A stretch of DNA of 64,000 nucleotides from Escherichia phage 241Ecol014PP. Location of the stretch: the sequence record OR062943.1. The stretch is one strand, 5' to 3'. The position numbers and the translations under genes were made by a program. The notes below the pieces were generated by a model, which made no database searches, was not told where the DNA came from, and was given only the letters and a program-made list of their open reading frames with translations. Of this stretch, positions 3,886-62,037 are shown one piece after another; position 1 is the first letter of the stretch, and every line of letters starts with the position of its first letter.

Positions 3886-3912
3886 GCCCCGCTTCGGCGG
3901 GGTTTATTTTTA
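3886..3912 (+). terminator. rho-independent terminator
   Basis: hairpin CCCCGC-TTCG-GCGGGG followed by TTTATTTTT, 9 nt after stop. Confidence 0.75.
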
Positions 3913-3920
3913 TGCTCAGA

Positions 3921-30247: not shown

Positions 30248-30275
30248 CCCCCGCTTCGGCGGGGATTTTCTATTT
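30248..30275 (+). terminator. rho-independent terminator
   Basis: CCCCGC-TTCG-GCGGGG hairpin (same stem-loop as at 3886) then ATTTTCTATTT. Confidence 0.7.
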
Positions 30276-30284
30276 GGAGTTATT

Positions 30285-36947: not shown

Positions 36948-36974
36948 GCCCTGCCCGAAAGGGTGGGGCTTTTT
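36948..36974 (+). terminator. rho-independent terminator
   Basis: GCCCTGCCC-GAAA-GGGTGGGGC with GAAA tetraloop then TTTTT; same hairpin recurs at 49592. Confidence 0.65.
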
Positions 36975-47763: not shown

Positions 47764-48989
47764 TGAGCGTTATTCAACAATTCGCTAACCCGATGAATCC
47801 GCGTGAAACTGTTTTACTGGCTCACGGCATGATTAAACGCGTCAGCATCAAGCCTATCAAAGGTGCTGATCCTACAACAGGTATTAAAACCACTGTGTGG
47901 CAAGGTAAGAAAATTGAGTCCAGCCACACCATCTCTTTACTGATTTCTGAACTGGATTCCTCTGATAACCTGCTTCAAGGTGGTGAAGAAGTCTGGATCA
48001 GCATGGGTGATAAACTGCTTAAACCGGGTCATCAAGACTCTGTCTCTGTTAAAATTGATGACAAGTGGGAAACCGTAACACCGGGATGGATCGTAAATAT
48101 TCCTTTGAAGGCAAACGAGCATAACGGTAAGACCTATTACAAAGGCTCACTGGCTAAGATGGTCAAGCTGGGTGCAGGAGAGGCTCCAGCAGCGACTCAG
48201 CAGCAAAAACAGCAACAAGGTGCACAATCACAAGGCCAGAAGCAGAAACCTCAGCAGAATGCCAATCAGGACGTTTTACGCATCTACGGTGATGTGACTC
48301 AGATTGTTGGCAACGTGGTTACTGTTAATGACCACAAGATTGGCGAAGGTGCTATGGTTGTCACTGATGAGCAGCTTAAAGACCTGGTGGTGGGTGGTCG
48401 TGTTGCCGCCATTGTTGACAAAGACACCGGAAACATTATCAGTGGTTTCAAAGCCTATCCACCTAAGGCAGAGAACGGCACTCAAGGCTCTGGTGGCAAG
48501 CGTAAATCATCTTACGACCCTATCGGTGTGGAAACGGGGCATAGCATCAATGCGTTGCAGATCATCCTGGATCGCGGGTTTAAGGTAGACGACCCACTGG
48601 GCGTGGCTAAAACACTGCACGTAGTCACCATTGAGCTTAAGAAAGAGTATGCTCAAGCCACCAACCGAACTGAAGATGAAGTAGGTGCCAGTGTCGGTAA
48701 TGCGGTGTTGAACGCTTGTCGCCGTATTGACAAGAAAACGAAAGTTGATGATTTTGCAGCGGCAATTACTGCAGAAGCAAAAGATGTCTTGACTAATCTG
48801 GCTGAACCGTTGTACGATTGGATCAAGAACGGTGCTGGGTCAACCGACCATCAAGAACCTCAGGCTGCCAAACAGGAAGCAGCTCCACAGCAAAACACTG
48901 TAGACGCTCCTCCTGTAAATGATGAGGGAGATGACCCGATGGATCAGAATCCAGCACAGTATGAGTTCGATGACTCGATCCCTTTCTGA
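47763..48989 (+). CDS. SSB-like single-stranded DNA-binding protein with acidic C-terminal tip
   Basis: 408 aa; Gln-rich linker; C-terminus DDPMDQNPAQYEFDDSIPF resembles the bacterial SSB ...DDDIPF tail. Confidence 0.45.
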   Translation: MSVIQQFANPMNPRETVLLAHGMIKRVSIKPIKGADPTTGIKTTVWQGKKIESSHTISLLISELDSSDNLLQGGEEVWISMGDKLLKPGHQDSVSVKIDDKWETVTPGWIVNIPLKANEHNGKTYYKGSLAKMVKLGAGEAPAATQQQKQQQGAQSQGQKQKPQQNANQDVLRIYGDVTQIVGNVVTVNDHKIGEGAMVVTDEQLKDLVVGGRVAAIVDKDTGNIISGFKAYPPKAENGTQGSGGKRKSSYDPIGVETGHSINALQIILDRGFKVDDPLGVAKTLHVVTIELKKEYAQATNRTEDEVGASVGNAVLNACRRIDKKTKVDDFAAAITAEAKDVLTNLAEPLYDWIKNGAGSTDHQEPQAAKQEAAPQQNTVDAPPVNDEGDDPMDQNPAQYEFDDSIPF

Positions 48990-48997
48990 GGTCAGTT

Positions 48998-49576
48998 ATG
49001 AAATGCAAACGTTGTGGAGAGGACAAGGAGGCCTCCGACTTCTACACCAGTAACAAATCAACGTGCAAAGAGTGTTGCAAGAAGGCCAGCAGGGAGGCTG
49101 ACCAATTTGCTAAAGACTCTTCAGAAAAAGGTGTAATACGCGTGCTGTACAAGTCTCAAAAGTGCAACAGCAAGCAAAGAGGTCACCCTCCTCCGACTTA
49201 CACCAAAAAAGAGTTTAAGGAGTGGCTATACCTGAACGGTTACAAAGAGTTGTATGATCAGTGGGTAGCCAGCGGATACGACAAAAGGAAAAAGCCTTCT
49301 TGTGACAGGATAGATGATTTCAAAGGGTACTCTTTTGATAATATCCGTTTAACGACTTGGGGAGAAAATAAAGACAAGCAGACAGAAGATATTCTGTTAC
49401 ATAGAAGCACCAGCGGTAGACGGTGCAAAAATGTAAGGAGGTTGGACATGAATGGTAACGTTCTTAAAGAATGGGTATCCCACAACTCTTGTAGCAGAGA
49501 AACCGGAATATATATTGGTTACTACATTCATGAAAAAATTCCAGCTCCAGATGGATACTTCTATGAATACTTTTAG
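48998..49576 (+). CDS. HNH_3-type endonuclease with N-terminal Cys-rich zinc finger
   Basis: CKRCG..CKECC pairs; PSCDRIDDFKGYSFDNIRLTTWGEN HNH_3-like core. Confidence 0.5.
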   Translation: MKCKRCGEDKEASDFYTSNKSTCKECCKKASREADQFAKDSSEKGVIRVLYKSQKCNSKQRGHPPPTYTKKEFKEWLYLNGYKELYDQWVASGYDKRKKPSCDRIDDFKGYSFDNIRLTTWGENKDKQTEDILLHRSTSGRRCKNVRRLDMNGNVLKEWVSHNSCSRETGIYIGYYIHEKIPAPDGYFYEYF

Positions 49577-49591
49577 CACCTAACTGACATA

Positions 49592-49620
49592 GCCCTGCCC
49601 GAAAGGGTGGGGCATTTTTG
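49592..49620 (+). terminator. rho-independent terminator
   Basis: GCCCTGCCC-GAAA-GGGTGGGGC then ATTTTTG; same hairpin as at 36948. Confidence 0.65.
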
Positions 49621-52790: not shown

Positions 52791-53113
52791 CAGAGATCAT
52801 CATTTCAACTGCAGGGTATGTATTCCTGACAATCCTTGCGCTGACTATTTTGGTGGTGGTATATGGGATTGTTATTCTCCCTATTCTTGAGACAATTAGT
52901 TTGTGTCGGTGTTGGAGAAAGGCTTACGGTCCACAGCCGTGGAAGGACTGGCCCCACCTGGTGCACATAGCGTTCTCTTATGCCTACGATCACTCTAGCA
53001 GTGCATGCATAACCGGATACCACGCCCACAATTGGAGATGGGAAGGGTTGAGGAAGTGGAATGTTACAAAGACTATACCTCTGCGCATGTACAAAGGAAA
53101 AAGGAGGGATTGA
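52787..53113 (+). CDS. membrane protein
   Basis: 108 aa; long N-terminal hydrophobic segment YVFLTILALTILVVVYGIVILPIL. Confidence 0.4.
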   Translation: MTEIIISTAGYVFLTILALTILVVVYGIVILPILETISLCRCWRKAYGPQPWKDWPHLVHIAFSYAYDHSSSACITGYHAHNWRWEGLRKWNVTKTIPLRMYKGKRRD

Positions 53114-53757
53114 TGGGAATACCTGTTAAAGACAGAAAAATATGTGGTCGTGGAGTAAACGATTTAAAAGACAAAGTCCCAATGTACCAATCTGTTAATG
53201 GTAAGAGAGTACCAGAACCTCACTATGCTACATGGAAAGCATTATTCCAGAGGTGCTACGGCGATAACTCAAAGTACCATACAGGTTGTGAAGTTGTAGA
53301 AGATTGGTGGTTGTTCTCAGAATTCTGGAAATGGATGGATACACAAGAGTGGAAAAGAAACGCTAAGAAGTTCACTCTTGACAAAGATCTGAAAATCCCC
53401 GGAAACAGAATATACTCCCCAGAAACATGTATGTTTGCTCCACCACAAATAAACACCTTATTTGGCATAAGACAGGCAGCACGAGGGGATTTACCTTTGG
53501 GTGTGACACTTAGAAAAGATGTAAACAAGTACCTCGTGCATTGTCATCAAGATGGAAAAATTGTTCATGGTGGTCATTTCGCTGATCCGCAGATAGCACA
53601 CAAGGTGTGGCAAGAAATGAAACTTGAGGAGATGAAGCTTCAAGCTATTAAAAACAAAGATGAGATTTGGCTGTTCGCCATTAAACGTGCAATAACTATC
53701 CTTGAGAATGATTTGAAAAATAATAAGGAGACTATAACATTGGTGAAATTTATTTAA
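53113..53757 (+). CDS. HNH_3-type endonuclease
   Basis: ATG 53113 after AAGGAGGG; Trp-rich region then TLDKDLKIPGNRIYSPETCMFAPPQIN core; track ORF begins at 53005. Confidence 0.5.
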   Translation: MGIPVKDRKICGRGVNDLKDKVPMYQSVNGKRVPEPHYATWKALFQRCYGDNSKYHTGCEVVEDWWLFSEFWKWMDTQEWKRNAKKFTLDKDLKIPGNRIYSPETCMFAPPQINTLFGIRQAARGDLPLGVTLRKDVNKYLVHCHQDGKIVHGGHFADPQIAHKVWQEMKLEEMKLQAIKNKDEIWLFAIKRAITILENDLKNNKETITLVKFI

Positions 53758-54085
53758 GATATTTATGGTAGTATTTATTTTAAAATTATAAAAATTTTAG
53801 GTGATGAGGGAAAATATGTAATGGATTTTCCCTTATTTATCAGATATTTGCAGATATTTGGAAATCCTTAGAAAATCAGAAAATGGATCGAAAACTAAAA
53901 TGGATTTTTCAGGGTAGACACGATGAGCTGAACCACTCATCCTATCGTTTGCGGCATATTCCGGACTACCATTCCAGATTTTCCGCGTATGCTCACATCC
54001 TCCTACTAGAACTTCCCCCACTTATCCTTGACCTTTTATGGTAATAATATAACCACTATCTTGAAGTTGCGGTGCAGCTTTCCAG

Positions 54086-54173
54086 GTACTCGATCTGTTT
54101 TTCGTTTCAAAGATTGAATTTTCTGAAAATTTTTCTCGATAAATTTCTTAGTACTCGATCTGTTTTTCGTTTT
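54086..54173. repeat. 22-bp direct repeat pair (GTACTCGATCTGTTTTTCGTTT) within ORF-free region
   Basis: copies at 54086-54107 and 54151-54173; surrounded by further short repeats (AAATGGAT x3, CAGATATTTG x2). Confidence 0.6.
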
Positions 54174-54377
54174 CTGAATCAGATTTTCTGGAAATCGTTC
54201 CGGCGCTCGACCTAAAATTTTTGGGGGCGAAATCGATTTTTCGTTTTCAGAAATGGATTTTTAAAATTTATATATGGGGATATTTTATGGGATATTGTTT
54301 TATAGGAAATTGTTACGGAGGATAATTAGCATGCTAATTAAATTTATTAAATGTGAGGAGTTCTCATTTAGAATTTT

Positions 54378-55739: not shown

Positions 55740-55758
55740 AGCACAAAGGAAAAAGATC

Positions 55759-56163
55759 ATGAATAAGAACGTACGCCGCATCATGAACGAACTGGCAAAC
55801 GATGAAAAAATTATTGATATGCATTTGGTCAACATTTGCCGCCGTTGTGTAACATACAACAACCGAGCCGCAAAAGCGCGTGAGATGAACGCAAAAGGCA
55901 CCTTAAAGCCATTCCAGGTGGTGGTAAAGGCCATTAAAGATGTAACTAATACGGCAAACCAGGTACAGGGGAACACCAACGAGAGTACCAATATTGATCC
56001 GGCTTACATCATGAAACGGATCCGGACCTGCAAGAACAAAGAGCAAGTGTATAATGTTATAGACTGGTTGGATTCTATGGGCGATGTGGTTTACAATAGG
56101 TTTTCTGCAGCTATTGAGATCCAGCTTGACAGGTTGGACGGTAAAGTACTGAAAACTTACTGA
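55759..56163 (+). CDS. hypothetical protein
   Basis: 134-aa ORF. Confidence 0.45.
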   Translation: MNKNVRRIMNELANDEKIIDMHLVNICRRCVTYNNRAAKAREMNAKGTLKPFQVVVKAIKDVTNTANQVQGNTNESTNIDPAYIMKRIRTCKNKEQVYNVIDWLDSMGDVVYNRFSAAIEIQLDRLDGKVLKTY

Positions 56164-56164
56164 G

Positions 56165-56205
56165 TTTATTTTTAGATGGCCTTGACACCAGGGCCATCAA
56201 TAAAG
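56165..56205 (+). repeat. 41-bp promoter/palindrome cassette, copy 1
   Basis: TTTATTTTTAGATGGCCTTGACACCAGGGCCATCAATAAAG; dyad GATGGCC..GGCCATC surrounds TTGACA. Confidence 0.65.
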
Positions 56206-56243
56206 TAAACTAATCTCAACTAAGCGAAAAAGGGGGCTTTAAG

Positions 56244-56363
56244 ATGAGCGCTACACGCCAATACACAAAGGTAACTATTATCGTTTGCGTTGTCGGTTAC
56301 ATCCTGGCGCAAATGTTAATGAGTAGCGCTAACAGTTTTGCAAAATTTTTCTTAAATTTTTAA
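56244..56363 (+). CDS. small hydrophobic peptide (39 aa)
   Basis: ATG after AAAGGGGG; single transmembrane-like segment; below track cutoff. Confidence 0.3.
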   Translation: MSATRQYTKVTIIVCVVGYILAQMLMSSANSFAKFFLNF

Positions 56364-56391
56364 TTGACAAACTAACTTAGATCAATATACT
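56364..56391 (+). promoter_or_regulatory. sigma70-like promoter
   Basis: TTGACA, 16-nt spacer, TATACT; followed by leader hairpin GGGAAAACTTCCC at 56405. Confidence 0.55.
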
Positions 56392-56442
56392 TAAACACGT
56401 AAACGGGAAAACTTCCCAGAGCACACAAAAGGAGAAAACACC

Positions 56443-56784
56443 ATGACTACTATGACCGCCGAAGAAAAAGCCCTGCAGATCGCCGCTCTGAAAAAACAGA
56501 TTGCAGAACTTGAAGACAAGATCGACAATTTTGAAATCGACGAAGACAAACACGACGATAAATATGATGAATGGTTAGACGAGATCTACGGCGAAATCAT
56601 GATCGGAAACATTTCTTTTCTTCCGTCGCGTATCCTCAAGGAGCTAGATCCTATCGCTTACCGCTGCGGATTTAGCGACTACATCGACAGCCTGGATATT
56701 GAGGACGATGAAGAATACCAAGAATTACAGACAGAGCTTGAAGAAGTGAAAGAAGAGCTTGCAGAACTGGAAGAAAACGAGTAA
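56443..56784 (+). CDS. highly acidic protein (candidate DNA mimic)
   Basis: 113 aa with roughly one third Asp/Glu and few basic residues; AAAGGAGAA RBS. Confidence 0.45.
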   Translation: MTTMTAEEKALQIAALKKQIAELEDKIDNFEIDEDKHDDKYDEWLDEIYGEIMIGNISFLPSRILKELDPIAYRCGFSDYIDSLDIEDDEEYQELQTELEEVKEELAELEENE

Positions 56785-56826
56785 ATTTATTTTTAGATGG
56801 CCTTGACACCAGGGCCATCAATAAAG
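56785..56826 (+). repeat. promoter/palindrome cassette, copy 2
   Basis: ATTTATTTTTAGATGGCCTTGACACCAGGGCCATCAATAAAG. Confidence 0.65.
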
Positions 56827-56859
56827 ATAATTTATTAACACCATGAAAGGAGAAAGTAC

Positions 56860-57213
56860 ATGATCAGCGGGGCTAGTTTTATTATTGGCGCTATTGCTAC
56901 GGCTTTAATTGTAAACAAGATCCAATCTAAAAACGAAAAAGATAGCAACGCGCTCACAGAATACCCATTTTGGGTATTCAACGACAACGAAGACTACATA
57001 ATCAAGTACAAGAATGAGAAGGGCGACCAGGTAACACCGCGACCGATCCCGGCTTACAAAATGCAAGAAACACTATACCGCCTAAAGGCTGGAGGCGCAA
57101 AAATCGTAGACTTTTGGGGATATGATTGCAAGGATCAGGAGGTTATAAAACGGCGTATCCGGGCGATTCAGGCAAATATTGAGATCAGTAAGGGGGGAAG
57201 TTATGAAAATTAA
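56860..57213 (+). CDS. membrane-anchored protein
   Basis: 117 aa; N-terminal hydrophobic helix ISGASFIIGAIATALIV. Confidence 0.45.
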   Translation: MISGASFIIGAIATALIVNKIQSKNEKDSNALTEYPFWVFNDNEDYIIKYKNEKGDQVTPRPIPAYKMQETLYRLKAGGAKIVDFWGYDCKDQEVIKRRIRAIQANIEISKGGSYEN

Positions 57214-57400
57214 TTTCGAAAAAATTGTAAAGCGCCCCCACGATTCCGAAGAGCTGCCGGAACGCCGCCAGCGCAACAATAAACTGAATAAACCGAAAAG
57301 ATTTGGGAAGATCTGGCGGAATCATTATGATCGTAAACTGCCTGTCCTACTTTTGGAACGTGAACGACAGGCGGAACGATACCGCCACAAAGGCAAATAA
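57203..57400 (+). CDS. small basic protein
   Basis: ATG 57203 after AGGGGGGAAG; Arg/Lys-rich; overlaps end of upstream gene. Confidence 0.35.
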   Translation: MKINFEKIVKRPHDSEELPERRQRNNKLNKPKRFGKIWRNHYDRKLPVLLLERERQAERYRHKGK

Positions 57401-57408
57401 CAACCAAC

Positions 57409-57438
57409 GCCCCGCCATTGTGCGGGGCTTTTTATTTC
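57409..57438 (+). terminator. rho-independent terminator
   Basis: GCCCCGC-CATTGT-GCGGGGC then TTTTTATTTC. Confidence 0.7.
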
Positions 57439-57570
57439 TATCCTACGAATAGCGCCCCTGGTTGGCCCTACAAACGCCACAAAAGCCCCTACCTATGCAA
57501 TCCCCTTTCTTAGCCTGAAAACATCACCCAGGGCCGTTTTATGGTGTTAAAAATATCTTTTATTTAAAGC

Positions 57571-57598
57571 TTGACACCTTGGAATCGCCTGATATACT
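57571..57598 (+). promoter_or_regulatory. sigma70-like promoter
   Basis: TTGACA, 16-nt spacer, TATACT. Confidence 0.55.
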
Positions 57599-57633
57599 AA
57601 CCACATCAAAGCAAGAAGGAAGGAGTAAACGCC

Positions 57634-57894
57634 ATGCGTAAATTAAAAAATTTTGATAAAGTCGATGTTGTCCTGAATAATTTTTACTACTGCAACAACA
57701 AGGCCATTTGGTGGCGTGATAGTTCCACCGATAAAGTCAAGGCGCGCTTTCTCCAGGGGCACTGGCAAGGCCGCCCAGTGATTAAAATCATGGGGCAATT
57801 GGTAGCGTTTAAAAATTGCCGCCGTGTTGATGACGTTGAAGAGATTCTAAACATTTTACGCCACAATAATTTAAAAAATAGTGTTGACAAGTAA
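57634..57894 (+). CDS. hypothetical protein
   Basis: 86-aa ORF with AGGAAGGAG RBS. Confidence 0.45.
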   Translation: MRKLKNFDKVDVVLNNFYYCNNKAIWWRDSSTDKVKARFLQGHWQGRPVIKIMGQLVAFKNCRRVDDVEEILNILRHNNLKNSVDK

Positions 57895-57911
57895 GCCTCA
57901 ATAAGTATACT
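57884..57911 (+). promoter_or_regulatory. sigma70-like promoter
   Basis: TTGACA overlapping stop codon, 16-nt spacer, TATACT. Confidence 0.55.
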
Positions 57912-57921
57912 TAAACACGCA

Positions 57922-57940
57922 GGCGGGAAAACTTCCCGCC
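57922..57940 (+). promoter_or_regulatory. conserved 5' leader hairpin GGCGGGAA-AAC-TTCCCGCC
   Basis: same stem as 55721-55739, located between promoter and RBS. Confidence 0.5.
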
Positions 57941-57968
57941 ACTAACAAAGAAAATAGGAGAAAATATC

Positions 57969-58592
57969 ATGACCACCGTTAACATTACTACAGGTTACAA
58001 TTTATCTTTCGACGTGCTGACCGACGAACAAAAAGAAAAAGCCGTTGAAATGGTCCGCGAAAGAGAAGAACACAGCGGGGATAACTTTTTTGCAGAAAGT
58101 GTAATTGAAGACTATAAAGAATATGTCTTTCCAGAGTATGGCCTTGAAGATACCAAGGTACATTGGTCCGGCTTTTGGTGCCAGGGTGACGGCGCGTCAA
58201 TCAGTGCGGAAAACGTGGATTTAGAAAAATTCTTGCGTAAAGTAAAGGCCCTGACCAAGTTCCGATCAATTCGTCACTTGTTCGGCACAATGCACGATGG
58301 CGAGCTATCCGCAAGTGTTGAGCGTGATCCATATAGCCGCTATAGTCACGAAAACACTGTAAGCGGGTACATCGATACTACATGGCTAGACCTGACCGCC
58401 AAACAAGAAAATAAAGTGGAAGATCTGGAAGAGCTGATCACCGAGACGGTACGGGAGCTATCCCGCAAGGTTTACGTAGACCTGGAGGGGGCCTATCTTG
58501 AACAATTCACTACCGAAAACCTGATCGGCCTTATCAAGGCCAATGATTGGCGGTTTGATGTGGATGAAGATGGCGAGATGACTTTTTCATAA
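57969..58592 (+). CDS. hypothetical protein
   Basis: 207-aa ORF, acidic. Confidence 0.45.
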   Translation: MTTVNITTGYNLSFDVLTDEQKEKAVEMVREREEHSGDNFFAESVIEDYKEYVFPEYGLEDTKVHWSGFWCQGDGASISAENVDLEKFLRKVKALTKFRSIRHLFGTMHDGELSASVERDPYSRYSHENTVSGYIDTTWLDLTAKQENKVEDLEELITETVRELSRKVYVDLEGAYLEQFTTENLIGLIKANDWRFDVDEDGEMTFS

Positions 58593-58682
58593 ATAAAGTG
58601 TTGCAATAACCTAAAAACCTGCTATATTAAAACTCAAGGGGGCAAGACGTTTGCCCCCACACAAAACAAAGAGGAAAACATC

Positions 58683-59063
58683 ATGAAAAACACTACTAAA
58701 GCTATTGACACCGTTATGTTTAACCTGGTTACCTTTCGCGAGGATATGAAAGATCTTCCACGTGAAACAGTGTGCGATCACATTGAAAACTATCGCAAAC
58801 TAATCAAAGAGTTGCCTTTAAAACGTGATCAGTATGCGGCTAACGCCATGCTTAATGCCATGATCAAAAAGATGATCCAGTGTGATTTAACTCTAGCCTA
58901 TGATTATGCGGGTGGTCGTTTTGCAGTATACAATCAGCCCGTGCCTGGTATGAGCACCACAGAAGAATTGCACGCGTTAAATCTAAAACAAGACGTGTGG
59001 GATAGTATGCCCCGCGTGGTGGTATGGGTAGAAAGCGGGAAGATTTACGGCGATAATTTTTAA
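58683..59063 (+). CDS. hypothetical protein
   Basis: 126-aa ORF with AAGAGGAAA RBS. Confidence 0.45.
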   Translation: MKNTTKAIDTVMFNLVTFREDMKDLPRETVCDHIENYRKLIKELPLKRDQYAANAMLNAMIKKMIQCDLTLAYDYAGGRFAVYNQPVPGMSTTEELHALNLKQDVWDSMPRVVVWVESGKIYGDNF

Positions 59064-59073
59064 TCAGGTAACA

Positions 59074-59102
59074 GGCGGCGGCATATTTGCCGCCTTATTG
59101 TT
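59074..59102 (+). terminator. rho-independent terminator
   Basis: GGCGGCA-TATT-TGCCGCC then TTATTGTT. Confidence 0.6.
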
Positions 59103-59130
59103 AAACAGAACTGCAAAAGAGGTACATAGA

Positions 59131-59502
59131 ATGGAATTTATTATTTTGGCTGTATTGGTTGCCTTGTTTAACGCCTGGATCGCTGGCAAGATGGGCAGAT
59201 CCGCCTTTTTATGGTTTATTATATCTATTTTCCTGGGGGTGGTTGCAACTATTGTATTGGTTATCCTTGCAATTGTTGACAAGGGGAATAATAGAAAGGG
59301 TAAAGTATTTTCAGACCTGTACGACGCTCAAACGTTTGTCAACGCATATTATAGTGATCTCCCAGTCTCCCTACGCTGCAGCCTGGCACAACAAGTTTTC
59401 GATGAGGCTAAAACCAGAGATCAAGCCCATGAGATATGTTTAACTGAGGCGGATCGCCTATTTGAGAGGAATAGAAAATATGTGGGCCAACCGTTTAAAT
59501 AA
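59131..59502 (+). CDS. two-helix membrane protein
   Basis: ATG 59131 after AAAGAGG; two hydrophobic segments in first 60 aa; track ORF starts at TTG 59098. Confidence 0.45.
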   Translation: MEFIILAVLVALFNAWIAGKMGRSAFLWFIISIFLGVVATIVLVILAIVDKGNNRKGKVFSDLYDAQTFVNAYYSDLPVSLRCSLAQQVFDEAKTRDQAHEICLTEADRLFERNRKYVGQPFK

Positions 59503-59725
59503 TGCCACGTTAATTAATCCCTTTAGTGAAGATTTGAAGCCAGCCGCCTGGCGTGATGGATTCAATACCGAACGCTTTATTTTCAGGCCTGATCTTGAGG
59601 AATTTTATAACAATGGATCGAACAACGACAGAGATAATTTTTCTTGTGATGTGCGTAGTGATGGTACTCCTGGGGGCCATTGTAAACCACGTCACTACTA
59701 CCAGGAGGAAAGGTGGAGACGATGA
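59480..59725 (+). CDS. hypothetical protein (uncertain)
   Basis: ATG 59480; overlaps both neighbours; weak RBS. Confidence 0.25.
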   Translation: MWANRLNNATLINPFSEDLKPAAWRDGFNTERFIFRPDLEEFYNNGSNNDRDNFSCDVRSDGTPGGHCKPRHYYQEERWRR

Positions 59726-59841
59726 CACCCAAGGATAAGCCACGCACCGATAAGGCGCGCCGTGTTATGGTGTGGCTGGAGATCATCGCCCTTGAAATAT
59801 TGTTAGGCGTAGGGATGTACTTTATCGCTATAAGTAACTAA
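59722..59841 (+). CDS. small membrane peptide (39 aa)
   Basis: ATG after AGGAGGAAAGGTGGAG; C-terminal hydrophobic helix; terminator follows. Confidence 0.35.
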   Translation: MTPKDKPRTDKARRVMVWLEIIALEILLGVGMYFIAISN

Positions 59842-59846
59842 GAACG

Positions 59847-59876
59847 GCCCCCGATCATGGGGGCTTATCTTTTTAA
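59847..59876 (+). terminator. rho-independent terminator
   Basis: GCCCCC-GATCAT-GGGGGC then TTATCTTTTT. Confidence 0.7.
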
Positions 59877-59980
59877 AAAATTTTTCTTCTAGGGTGTTGC
59901 AATCCGGTCCGGAATGTGGATAATGACAATCAACGGGGAGCTAATCCCCACCAACACAAAAACCAGAAAGGAGAAACAAA

Positions 59981-60181
59981 ATGAGCAACAATATCCGCGT
60001 TATTAACTTCAAAAAAGAAGAAAAAATTGCCGTGCTGATTGACGGTCAAGAAATCTTCAAGGGCGATTATGAAGATCATCAAACGGCGATTAGTATCACT
60101 CGCGTGATCGGTTACCATAATTTCTACCCCCAAGGCGCTGAGGCAGCAGTTAAACGAATCAAAGAGATTGTAGGCCTGTAA
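59981..60181 (+). CDS. hypothetical protein
   Basis: 66-aa ORF, AAAGGAGAA RBS. Confidence 0.4.
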   Translation: MSNNIRVINFKKEEKIAVLIDGQEIFKGDYEDHQTAISITRVIGYHNFYPQGAEAAVKRIKEIVGL

Positions 60182-60182
60182 A

Positions 60183-60224
60183 ATTTATTTTTAGATGGCC
60201 TTGACCCCAGGGCCATCAATAAAG
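60183..60224 (+). repeat. promoter/palindrome cassette, copy 3 (TTGACC variant)
   Basis: ATTTATTTTTAGATGGCCTTGACCCCAGGGCCATCAATAAAG. Confidence 0.65.
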
Positions 60225-60272
60225 TAAATTTAAACCCTGTTAAAATAATCAGTACAAAAAGGAGTAATGATC

Positions 60273-60572
60273 ATGTTTATACCCGCCAATAATCTTTATT
60301 TCTTTGATGGTCAGATCGTAGACGGTGTGGAAGTGGAGATCACCGGGTGCCCTGGCGGTCAGGCTATGACTTTTCGGAATAATGCCTTTGATGATTCTCA
60401 TATCGTTATGAGAATGGAAGTTACGAAGCTGGACGACAAGAAAACACTTATTGACTATTCTGTGAAAGATCATCCAGACTACCGCATGATCCATGGCGAT
60501 TTGTGCATTGTTGACCGTGACAAGGTGGGCGGCATTGTGATCGCTATTGTGAACGATGTTTTCTCAAACTAA
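60273..60572 (+). CDS. hypothetical protein
   Basis: ATG 60273 is 8 nt after GGAG; track start 60267 is too close to the RBS. Confidence 0.4.
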   Translation: MFIPANNLYFFDGQIVDGVEVEITGCPGGQAMTFRNNAFDDSHIVMRMEVTKLDDKKTLIDYSVKDHPDYRMIHGDLCIVDRDKVGGIVIAIVNDVFSN

Positions 60573-60589
60573 TTTCAGCAGGTGATTTT

Positions 60590-60940
60590 ATGAAAGTTAA
60601 ACTATATTACCTTAATGAGCTTAACCCCCTTGCCCAGGTCCGCGCCCTGGCTAATACCTTGATTTGTGAGAAATCTGCATATTGTGTTGAGCTTAACGCC
60701 ATGCGTGAACGTCTTAAAGGGGGTTACTTTGACATCCATGCTGCAATCAACGGCCTGAATATGGAATTTATACGCTTACGTAACAGCCGCCGGAATCTGG
60801 TAAGAATGGAACAAGATCCGGCCCACCTTCGTAAGCTGGTTATTGAAAACCATCTGATGTTTAATGCCGAGGGTGATTATTACCATTTTCACCGCAAACG
60901 TTGGTACCGTGGCGGCAATACAAGCAAGAATGCAAAATAA
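60590..60940 (+). CDS. hypothetical basic protein
   Basis: 116-aa ORF. Confidence 0.4.
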   Translation: MKVKLYYLNELNPLAQVRALANTLICEKSAYCVELNAMRERLKGGYFDIHAAINGLNMEFIRLRNSRRNLVRMEQDPAHLRKLVIENHLMFNAEGDYYHFHRKRWYRGGNTSKNAK

Positions 60941-61719: not shown

Positions 61720-61743
61720 CAACGTTTTAAATTAGTTTAAGAT
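61716..61743 (+). promoter_or_regulatory. sigma70-like promoter
   Basis: TTGACA overlapping stop codon, 16-nt spacer, TAAGAT. Confidence 0.4.
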
Positions 61744-61793
61744 GTATCACGTAGGGCGGCAATGGTGCCGCTCACAACTGGAAGGAAAACACC

Positions 61794-61997
61794 ATGACTA
61801 CAGCTAACCGCCTGATCGCCGTCCTGAACAAAGCAAAGGCTAACCGCCTGGATGTTCAAATCAAAGAGCAAGCAAATGGCGAGATCCTTGCTACGGTGTC
61901 CGATGGCGGTTATGTATCGGAATCATTTTTATCAGGGAGCTTAGATCATCTTGTTTGGAAATTAGAAATTATCGTGGAGGATATGCAGATCATCTAA
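61794..61997 (+). CDS. hypothetical protein
   Basis: 67-aa ORF with GGAAGGAAA RBS. Confidence 0.4.
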   Translation: MTTANRLIAVLNKAKANRLDVQIKEQANGEILATVSDGGYVSESFLSGSLDHLVWKLEIIVEDMQII

Positions 61998-62006
61998 TCT
62001 TTACAA

Positions 62007-62037
62007 AACAGGGCTTGTTTTTGTCCTGTTTTTTGTT
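62007..62037 (+). terminator. rho-independent terminator
   Basis: AACAGGGC..GTCCTGTT stem then TTTTGTT. Confidence 0.55.

Follow-up and report, generated by a model that had tools for sequence, protein, structure and literature searches.

The stretch of Escherichia phage 241Ecol014PP considered here (record OR062943.1; 64,000 nt in all, hereafter the window) belongs to a Vequintavirus, an rV5-like coliphage of ~137 kb, and carries three copies of a short intergenic cassette that we believe, with moderate confidence, to be dual-coded. As double-stranded DNA it would be a promoter, while as RNA the same nucleotides would form a hairpin enclosing that promoter, and the cassette would serve in addition as a linker at which gene modules recombine. 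Judged by its sequence, the closest analogue is the promoter-early stem-loop (PeSL) of T4-like phages. Neither the recombination role nor the PeSL analogy figured in an earlier note on this DNA, which had remarked on the repeat itself.

The core of the cassette is the 41-mer TTTATTTTTAGATGGCCTTGACACCAGGGCCATCAATAAAG, found without mismatch at 56165-56205 and 56786-56826 and with a single mismatch, A to C at a loop base, at 60184-60224. The near-identical 41-bp cassette used three times, with one C variant, that the earlier note described is thus present as two exact copies and one single-mismatch copy; its start at 56165 is right, but those it gave as 56785 and 60183 are each off by one. No further match with up to 3 mismatches occurs in the window and none in 100 shuffles, the chance expectation in this shuffle test being 0 copies against the 3 observed, and a covariance model (which scores copy A1 at 81.4 bits) finds no extra or diverged copies beyond the three in the window. 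Taken as a direct repeat, the element is 52 nt long and forms both the top-ranking and the largest direct-repeat family of the window. Each copy does follow a stop codon and precede the next gene, as had been noted: TGA at 56161-56163, TAA at 56782-56784 and TAA at 60179-60181 lie before copies 1, 2 and 3, the cassette starting 1-2 nt past the stop and the next start codon lying 40-45 nt further on. The open reading frames (ORFs) that come next begin at 56244, 56860 and 60267, and every one of these starts has GGAG or GGGGG ahead of it.

The complete unit spans ~50 nt, and its predicted fold has ~20 bp in two helices. A GC-rich upper stem of 10 bp (GATGGCCTTG/CAGGGCCATC, with one T.G pair and the 4-nt loop ACAC) folds at -17.8 kcal/mol with a z score of -6.8; below it come a 2x3 internal loop and an AU-rich lower stem of 10-13 bp formed by the AT-rich flanks, where AGTTTATTTT for instance pairs with AAAGTAAACT. 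At its base the hairpin overlaps the stop codon of the upstream gene; the 5' strand of the lower stem is the T-rich tract and its 3' strand the -10 hexamer. The earlier note had placed a TTGACA -35 hexamer in the loop of a GATGGCC/GGCCATC dyad. That dyad is real, but the stem is longer, so that TTG lies within the stem and only ACA within the loop. The parts are as follows.

56163..56211, + strand: copy A1, full two-part hairpin (fold -25.1 kcal/mol, z -6.4)
56163-56172 with 56202-56211, + strand: A1 lower stem
56173-56174 and 56199-56201, + strand: A1 internal loop
56175-56184 with 56189-56198, + strand: A1 upper stem
56185-56188, + strand: A1 tetraloop ACAC
56182..56211, + strand: A1 predicted sigma70-type promoter (10 of 12 matches; the same architecture is called a promoter in phage Gotham)
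56182-56187, 56206-56211: A1 predicted -35 TTGACA and -10 TAAACT, separated by an 18-bp spacer; expected start ~56218
56781..56835, + strand: copy 2, recombinant A2/B joint (fold -22.7 kcal/mol, z -6.4)
56796-56805 with 56810-56819, + strand: copy 2 upper stem
56803-56808, 56826-56831: copy 2 predicted promoter, -35 TTGACA and -10 GATAAT
60181..60231, + strand: copy A3, full hairpin (fold -23.6 kcal/mol, z -6.8)
60181-60191 with 60221-60231: A3 lower stem
60194-60203 with 60208-60217: A3 upper stem
60204-60207: A3 loop ACCC
60201-60206, 60225-60230: A3 predicted promoter, -35 TTGACC and -10 TAAATT

The fold is strand-specific. Full units fold at -22.4 to -30.3 kcal/mol on the + strand (z -5.5 to -6.8) and at only -8.1 to -16.8 kcal/mol on the - strand, A1 giving -25.1 kcal/mol sense and -16.8 antisense. 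The window has 43 sigma70-like promoter candidates, and the three cassettes stand apart from the rest as outliers in fold stability, at -23.6 to -25.1 kcal/mol against -16.6 for the next.

The 55-61.5 kb stretch that holds the cassettes is the early region, made up of small + strand ORFs of unknown function (the genes flanking the cassettes all fall in PHROGs of unknown function), and its identity to APECc02, slur16, HdK5 and over 100 others is 93-95%. It is indel-rich between relatives that are ~93% identical, and contains ~12 consensus sigma70-like promoters with AT-rich upstream tracts at equivalent intergenic sites. A 54-nt query retrieves the cassette from 120 phage records, all rV5-like and mostly with 3 places each, and the same four positions are filled in nearly all of the ~120 genomes. 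Most relatives have four elements in the order g134-(A1)-g39-g113-(A2)-g82-(B)-g117 ... g66-(A3)-g101, where B is a variant described below. IMG/VR holds only 2 related loci; a metagenome scan with the right-arm 17-mer gave 120 loci, mostly chance matches in which 0-6 of 10 positions pair, and a handful of true cassettes; the covariance model found no cassette in two-thirds of the genome of the Seunavirus PVP-SE1; an Rfam search of the cassette returned no match; and no paper containing its longer sequence strings was found in the literature searched. The carriers include 17 "Campylobacter phage" records (MG0656xx, host Campylobacter jejuni), ~94% identical to the window region, which are probably mislabelled or contaminant assemblies.

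Across genomes differing by 6-10% overall, the cassette is far better conserved than the coding sequence that flanks it, and its variation falls mostly in the loop. Counting was done on intergenic regions located only by their flanking genes, with intact arms not required. Over ten loci, 7 of 81 stem columns, 8 of 17 loop columns, 4 of 40 in the T-tract and 2 of 28 in the tail vary, as opposed to 54 of 246 in the upstream coding flank. Six of the seven variable stem columns belong to the right arm of A1, the site of a 5-nt deletion in Gotham (L144 4030-4075), which eliminates the right arm and brings the spacer down to 13, and of an extra loop base in the IMG/VR phage L008 (a 137-kb contig), whose A1 has a 5-nt loop (TTGATAAC) and an intact stem.

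Point differences in the upper stem number eight. Six of them are transitions that keep + strand pairing through G.U (A-U to G.U, U.G to C-G, C-G to U.G, G-C to G.U twice in different paralogues, and U-A to U.G), and the other two are transversions that break the pair. The outer helix, which had played no part in selecting the sequences, is 95.7% paired, compared with 45-69% when the partner strand is slid; 4 of its 10 pairs have changed on both sides (0-1 when slid), and its covariation score is 0.257 as against at most 0.086. One such change (columns 9/53, U-A to C-G) is found between B-type copies that are orthologous. The covariation lends moderate support to the sense-strand fold.

The candidate promoter consists of a -35 hexamer (TTGACA or TTGACC), a spacer of 17-18 bp and a -10 hexamer (TAAACT, GATAAT or TAAATT), with the AT-rich tract TTTATTTTTA upstream. 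Copies 1, 2 and 3 match the consensus at 10, 11 and 9 of 12 positions, and spacing of 17 +/- 1 bp and the A2 and T6 of the -10 hexamer are present. TTGAC is kept in 45 of 46 canonical copies (17 loci), while loop position 3 may be A, T, C or G and position 4 C or T, and a T.G wobble is found in all canonical copies just where TTG needs its T. The Gotham record annotates A2 and A3 as promoters (PhagePromoter; TTGACT-18-TAAACT/TAAATT), and host sigma70-like promoters have been proposed for the rV5-like group (PMC3606486; PMC7344957). Sequence and comparison together thus favor the promoter that the earlier note had proposed. An N4-type hairpin promoter for a virion RNA polymerase was considered and dropped, the window being Vequintavirus and the promoters proposed for that group host sigma70-like. 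The authors of work on Certrevirus describe sigma70-like early promoters with UP elements and no hairpin. The Murica record, for its part, annotates the B-type copy and A3 as 45-nt terminators, by prediction only, so that GenBank treats one element as a "promoter" in the Gotham record and as a "terminator" in the Murica record, and leaves it unannotated in the type phage.

The B-type copy, which reads TTATTTTTTC GGTGG(T/C)CCTG nnnn CAGGGCCATC TATAAAG ATAAT, has CCTGGCTG in place of TTGACA and so has lost the -35 hexamer. It nonetheless keeps all ten upper-stem pairs by way of G.U pairs, together with the lower stem, the T-tract and the ATAAAG tail. Its loop is GCTG, GTGG, GTTG, GTAG or GTAA, it has C-G where the canonical copies have the T.G wobble, and it folds at -22.4 kcal/mol in the sense orientation and -8.1 kcal/mol (z -1.1) in the antisense. 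Because the B-type copy retains the hairpin without the -35, and canonical copies retain TTGAC while neighbouring loop bases vary, promoter and hairpin have apparently been selected separately. Two overlapping constraints thus appear to act on this sequence: a sense-strand fold common to canonical and B-type copies, and a -35 hexamer confined to the canonical ones. The two kinds of copy amount to a natural experiment that separates the DNA-level from the RNA-level signal.

That the cassettes are also sites of recombination is seen from joints that end within them, in a neighborhood laid out as follows.

55759..56163, + strand: g134, 134-aa ORFan gene, phrog_13245, unknown function; stop codon overlaps the A1 hairpin base
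56244..56784, + strand: module between A1 and A2, comprising g39 (56244-56363), an internal sigma70-like promoter (56364-56391) and g113 (56443-56784)
56860..57213, + strand: g117, 117 aa, phrog_12734; downstream of copy 2, and in relatives downstream of the B-type copy
59981..60181, + strand: g66, 66 aa, phrog_12347; upstream of A3, stop codon overlapping the hairpin base
60267..60572, + strand: g101, 101 aa, phrog_7366; downstream of A3

In an alignment with six relatives, the window is without ~334 bp, namely the 82-aa gene g82 and one cassette, that are present in all those examined. The alignment pieces on the two sides overlap across the cassette, the overlap being 26 bp for rV5_ev146 and 46-54 bp for the other five. 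Read base by base, window copy 2 begins with the left flank of A2, continues as a canonical cassette as far as AATAAAG and then passes into the right flank of the B type (GATAAT...). This puts the crossover in the last 6 bp of the cassette and explains why copy 2 alone has a GATAAT -10. The 60 best of 119 relatives all lack this A2/B joint. Another joint, A1/A2, deletes g39 and g113 (598 bp) in magaca, ime, ECP26, phiWec189 and one IMG/VR contig. The flanks of magaca are 100% identical to those of undeleted HdK5, and g134 is present in ECP26 and phiWec189 as the other allele, which has 96-97.5% identity with the undeleted window and 89% with magaca. Since the deletion occurs on at least two flank haplotypes, it arose at least twice.

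Other candidate breakpoints were rejected. A mosaic breakpoint at the B-type copy in magaca and ECP26, seen at 100-nt resolution, is placed by informative sites at +106 to +128, 40-65 nt inside g117. The rV5_ev146 deletion of 55746-56255, for which the 12-mer TAAAGTAAACTA near both ends had suggested itself, has its actual joint in another, imperfect microhomology inside g39. The remaining indels share only 7-9 nt boundary words and no cassette; the indels unconnected with cassettes include an HNH insertion at 53095-53853, the segments 48986-49570 and 60566-60929, a replacement at 61722-62030 and a 4.7-kb deletion in rV5_ev146. The gene g117 itself has two alleles, ~85% identical (window 56924-57213; L005 8454-8476; L146 6680-6702), and the g82 and g117 alleles occur in four combinations, implying that the conserved 5' end of g117 has been a site of recombination.

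We envision the cassette operating as follows. In double-stranded DNA it would act as a host sigma70-type early promoter driving the ORFan gene downstream. RNA reading through from promoters further upstream would fold the same ~50 nt into a long sense-strand hairpin beginning at the upstream stop codon, and this hairpin may punctuate the polycistronic early RNA, either by processing and 3'-end stabilization, an RNase III-type substrate being the likeliest form, or by attenuation, as opposed to canonical intrinsic termination. The 41-52 bp of identity between copies would meanwhile make the cassettes substrates for homologous recombination, by which ORFan modules could be removed or added. A more specific version, which we put forward only tentatively, is that the read-through RNA is the substrate of a double-strand-specific processing enzyme (host RNase III or a phage factor) that cuts the polycistronic early RNA where each ORFan ends, leaving a hairpin to protect the 3' end. 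If this is so, each ORFan module would have its own "start" and its neighbor's "end" in one portable linker, which would explain the conservation of the linker, the persistence of a hairpin-only copy, and the gain and loss of modules at cassettes.

The comparison with PeSLs is instructive. These cassettes were described in the T4-like phages RB49/phi1, PST and nt-1 (Arbiol et al. 2010, PMC2839356; Comeau et al. 2014, PMC4122927). In a PeSL the upstream stop codon falls in AT-rich sequence, and a strong sigma70-like promoter is joined to a stem-loop that contains G.T pairs and can take any of five positions, one of which straddles the -35; the elements lie beside ORFans in hyperplastic regions, and two copies that recombine leave a chimera behind (PMC2839356; PMC4122927). 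The rV5-like cassette likewise is a repeated intergenic composite, in an early region rich in ORFans and indels, with a sigma70-like promoter and AT tract, a G.T-containing stem-loop over the -35, an upstream stop codon in an AT-rich tract and a Shine-Dalgarno sequence and start codon after it, and chimeric joints at indels. There are also differences. PeSLs number ~50 per genome in phi1/RB49, and rV5-like cassettes 3-4; the PeSL stem has a GGGG...CCCC motif that is missing here; and the rV5-like cassette has its entire promoter, T-tract to -10, inside the hairpin, which comprises ~20 bp in two parts and whose AU-rich lower stem covaries, and it also occurs in a variant with no promoter. For PeSLs, mini-circles and both promoter and terminator activity have been demonstrated (PMC2839356; PMC4122927); the promoter of the rV5-like cassette is predicted from its sequence. 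The discoverers of PeSLs saw no evidence of them outside T4-like phages (PMC2839356), and the PeSL citation in the HdK5 paper concerns T4-likes. Because all matches to the cassette are Vequintavirus and none is T4-like, we regard it as an analogue and not a homologue of the PeSL. PeSL-type linkers have been put forward to explain, in concrete mechanistic terms, how large lytic phages evolve by modules. The rV5-like cassette is laid out comparably, and recurrent deletions of modules were directly observed to end within it; being non-homologous it would suggest that promoter-plus-hairpin linkers are a convergent way to keep accessory genes both expressed and exchangeable.

A separate observation concerns the Seunavirus PVP-SE1 (L150), where sigma70-like promoters at ~25006(-), 21468(-) and 40035(+) have GC-rich hairpins between -35 and -10, e.g. 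TTTGACAAGCGCCGGGAGACTGGCGCATAAT. This is the classic PeSL layout, in a sequence unrelated to the rV5-like cassette.

Phage T7 offers a likeness of shape. Its early mRNA reportedly has RNase III processing hairpins interleaved with promoters in the intergenic gaps, and the T7 intergenic hairpins that we folded lie in gaps that we take to hold RNase III sites. Like the cassette, they are intergenic sense-strand structures with an upper stem of ~10 bp, a small loop, an internal loop, a lower stem, G.U pairs and adjoining promoters, and the predicted fold of the cassette, an interrupted duplex of ~20 bp with an internal loop, resembles an RNase III substrate of the T7 type in its dimensions. There is no sequence similarity, however, and the T7 promoter stands beside the hairpin where that of the cassette lies inside it. 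The morons of lambdoid phages are small accessory genes with their own promoter and a boundary signal (Hendrix et al. 2000, as discussed in PMC2839356), and in this the cassette modules resemble them; but morons have no conserved repeated linker as a crossover site, and the cassette holds the crossover within itself.

Several points weigh against the dual-coded reading. As to the promoter, the rV5 type record annotates nothing at the four cassette positions, the stringent promoter table of the rV5 authors leaves the cassette out, the -10 hexamers of A1 and A3 match at only 4 of 6 positions with a non-optimal 18-bp spacer, and no transcript mapping for Vequintavirus was found in the literature searched. 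Moreover, because the -10 is the 3' strand of the lower stem, its conservation is explicable by pairing alone. As to the hairpin, the RNase III idea draws only on dimensions resembling those of T7 hairpins, insulation by termination is doubtful for a hairpin with no U-tract, and the covariation comes from few independent events in closely related sequences, whose relatedness inflates the shuffle statistics. As to recombination, only 2 of ~8 indel types in the region end in cassettes, and deletion is expected between any direct repeats, so it may be a by-product and not a function. Single copies are, finally, dispensable: A1 has decayed in Gotham, and rV5_ev146 is without A1 and A3.

Some of these points would suit an RNA hairpin alone, a processing, stability or attenuation signal in which the resemblance to TTGACA and a -10 is incidental, as might be supposed from the weak -10 constrained by lower-stem pairing, the 18-bp spacer, the absence of the cassette from the rV5 promoter table, and a B-type copy that dispenses with the -35 and keeps hairpin, T-tract and ATAAAG tail. 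We nevertheless consider this unlikely, given that TTGAC is retained in 45 of 46 canonical copies even though two of its bases are loop bases whose neighbors vary freely, that a destabilizing T.G occupies in every canonical copy the very place at which TTG needs T and at which B-type copies have C-G, and that equivalent intergenic sites hold ~12 further consensus sigma70-like promoters. A second account has upstream transcripts ended efficiently by a Rho-independent terminator, with transcription re-initiated from the overlapping promoter; it is likewise doubtful, if anything slightly more so. A GC-rich 10-bp stem does come right after the stop codons, with a promoter for the next gene behind it, as an intrinsic terminator followed by a promoter would require and as Murica annotates; and one PeSL stem-loop cut reporter expression as rrnB T1 does (PMC2839356). 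Yet an intrinsic terminator has a 3' U-tract, and the cassette has its T-tract on the 5' side, paired with an A-rich 3' side. The T-run lies upstream of the hairpin and AATAAAG downstream (the 3' sequence on the - strand being TAAAAATAAA), no T-run follows the stem on either strand, and a terminator scan of the window leaves the cassette unlisted while listing true terminators nearby at 57409 and 59073. Because it has no U-tract, the hairpin is not a canonical intrinsic terminator. Strong termination at the promoter-less B-type copy, between A2 and g117, would besides deprive g117 of transcript, and a covarying AU-rich lower stem is not a terminator feature. The earlier note's suggestion that termination is coupled to re-initiation is in this sense weakly supported, for the hairpin is real and under selection but has neither the U-tract nor the scan call of a terminator.

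The remaining explanations place the function in the DNA or deny one. The earlier note had also allowed for a dimeric regulator, of phage or host, bound to the dyad as its operator and controlling the promoter. An inverted repeat overlapping the -35 and very highly conserved, above all in its invariant right arm and ATAAAG tail, is consistent with this. The changes within the arms (A to G, C to T, T to C, C to T at the closing pair, A to G), though, are nearly all G.U-compatible on one strand and break the symmetry of the DNA dyad, compensatory double changes in the outer helix keep pairing and not base identity, the left arm of the B-type copy (GGTGG(T/C)CCTG, facing a right arm CAGGGCCATC) departs from symmetric half-sites, and the B-type fold is asymmetric between strands. 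Because the G.U pattern is one-sided and the changes compensatory, both a symmetric protein operator and a DNA cruciform are disfavored; the first we rate as quite improbable. The second, in which supercoiling extrudes the palindrome, occludes the -35 and makes the promoter supercoiling-sensitive, might be read from a 24-nt palindrome with AT-rich flanks and from the folding of both single DNA strands of the canonical copy (-9.9 and -8.7 kcal/mol), but it strikes us as very improbable, with selection apparently acting on one strand, G.T pairs becoming C.A mismatches opposite, and the antisense B-type strand barely folding. Least credible of all is that the repeats are functionless leftovers of recent local duplications: the copies do lie within 4 kb and can individually be lost, but the cassette is far better conserved than its coding flanks, varies in the loop, and fills its four positions in nearly all genomes.

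A second repeated cassette of the window (family D6, 78% identity) lies at 56364-56417 and 57884-57937. It consists of TTGACA, a 16-nt spacer and TATACT followed by a conserved 5' untranslated region with a small stem-loop, GGGAAAACTTCCC, a promoter-plus-downstream-stem-loop arrangement in a different sequence family. The rV5 record annotates a sigma70-type promoter, P192, at the position of the first D6 copy, immediately before ORF192, which corresponds to g113.

Mobile nuclease genes seem to account for part of the variation between relatives. A window-specific segment of 757 bp, 53095-53853, replaces ~100 bp of all six relatives compared, and the ORF at 53005-53757 encodes a 250-aa HNH endonuclease (phrog_953, E 2e-62); this is probably a homing-endonuclease insertion. 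The 585 bp at 48986-49570, absent from magaca and rV5_ev146, are likely another mobile nuclease gene, the counterpart in SophiaRose being annotated "putative endonuclease VII". At 61722-62030 the window has ~280-309 bp and the relatives 1.4-2.3 kb, with several small genes missing or replaced and a 9-nt shared boundary word.

Three direct repeats of ~47-57 nt, spaced 65 and 74 nt apart (D3, D5), occupy 54076-54261 within a stretch of ~335 nt without an annotated HdK5 gene; they have no Rfam match and might be iterons or a small RNA. Terminator hairpins of near-identical sequence recur far apart in the window, at 36948-36974 and 49592-49618 (GCCCTGCCCGAAAGGGTGGGGC followed by T's) and at 3887-3914 and 30249-30276 (CCCCGCTTCGGCGGGG followed by T's).

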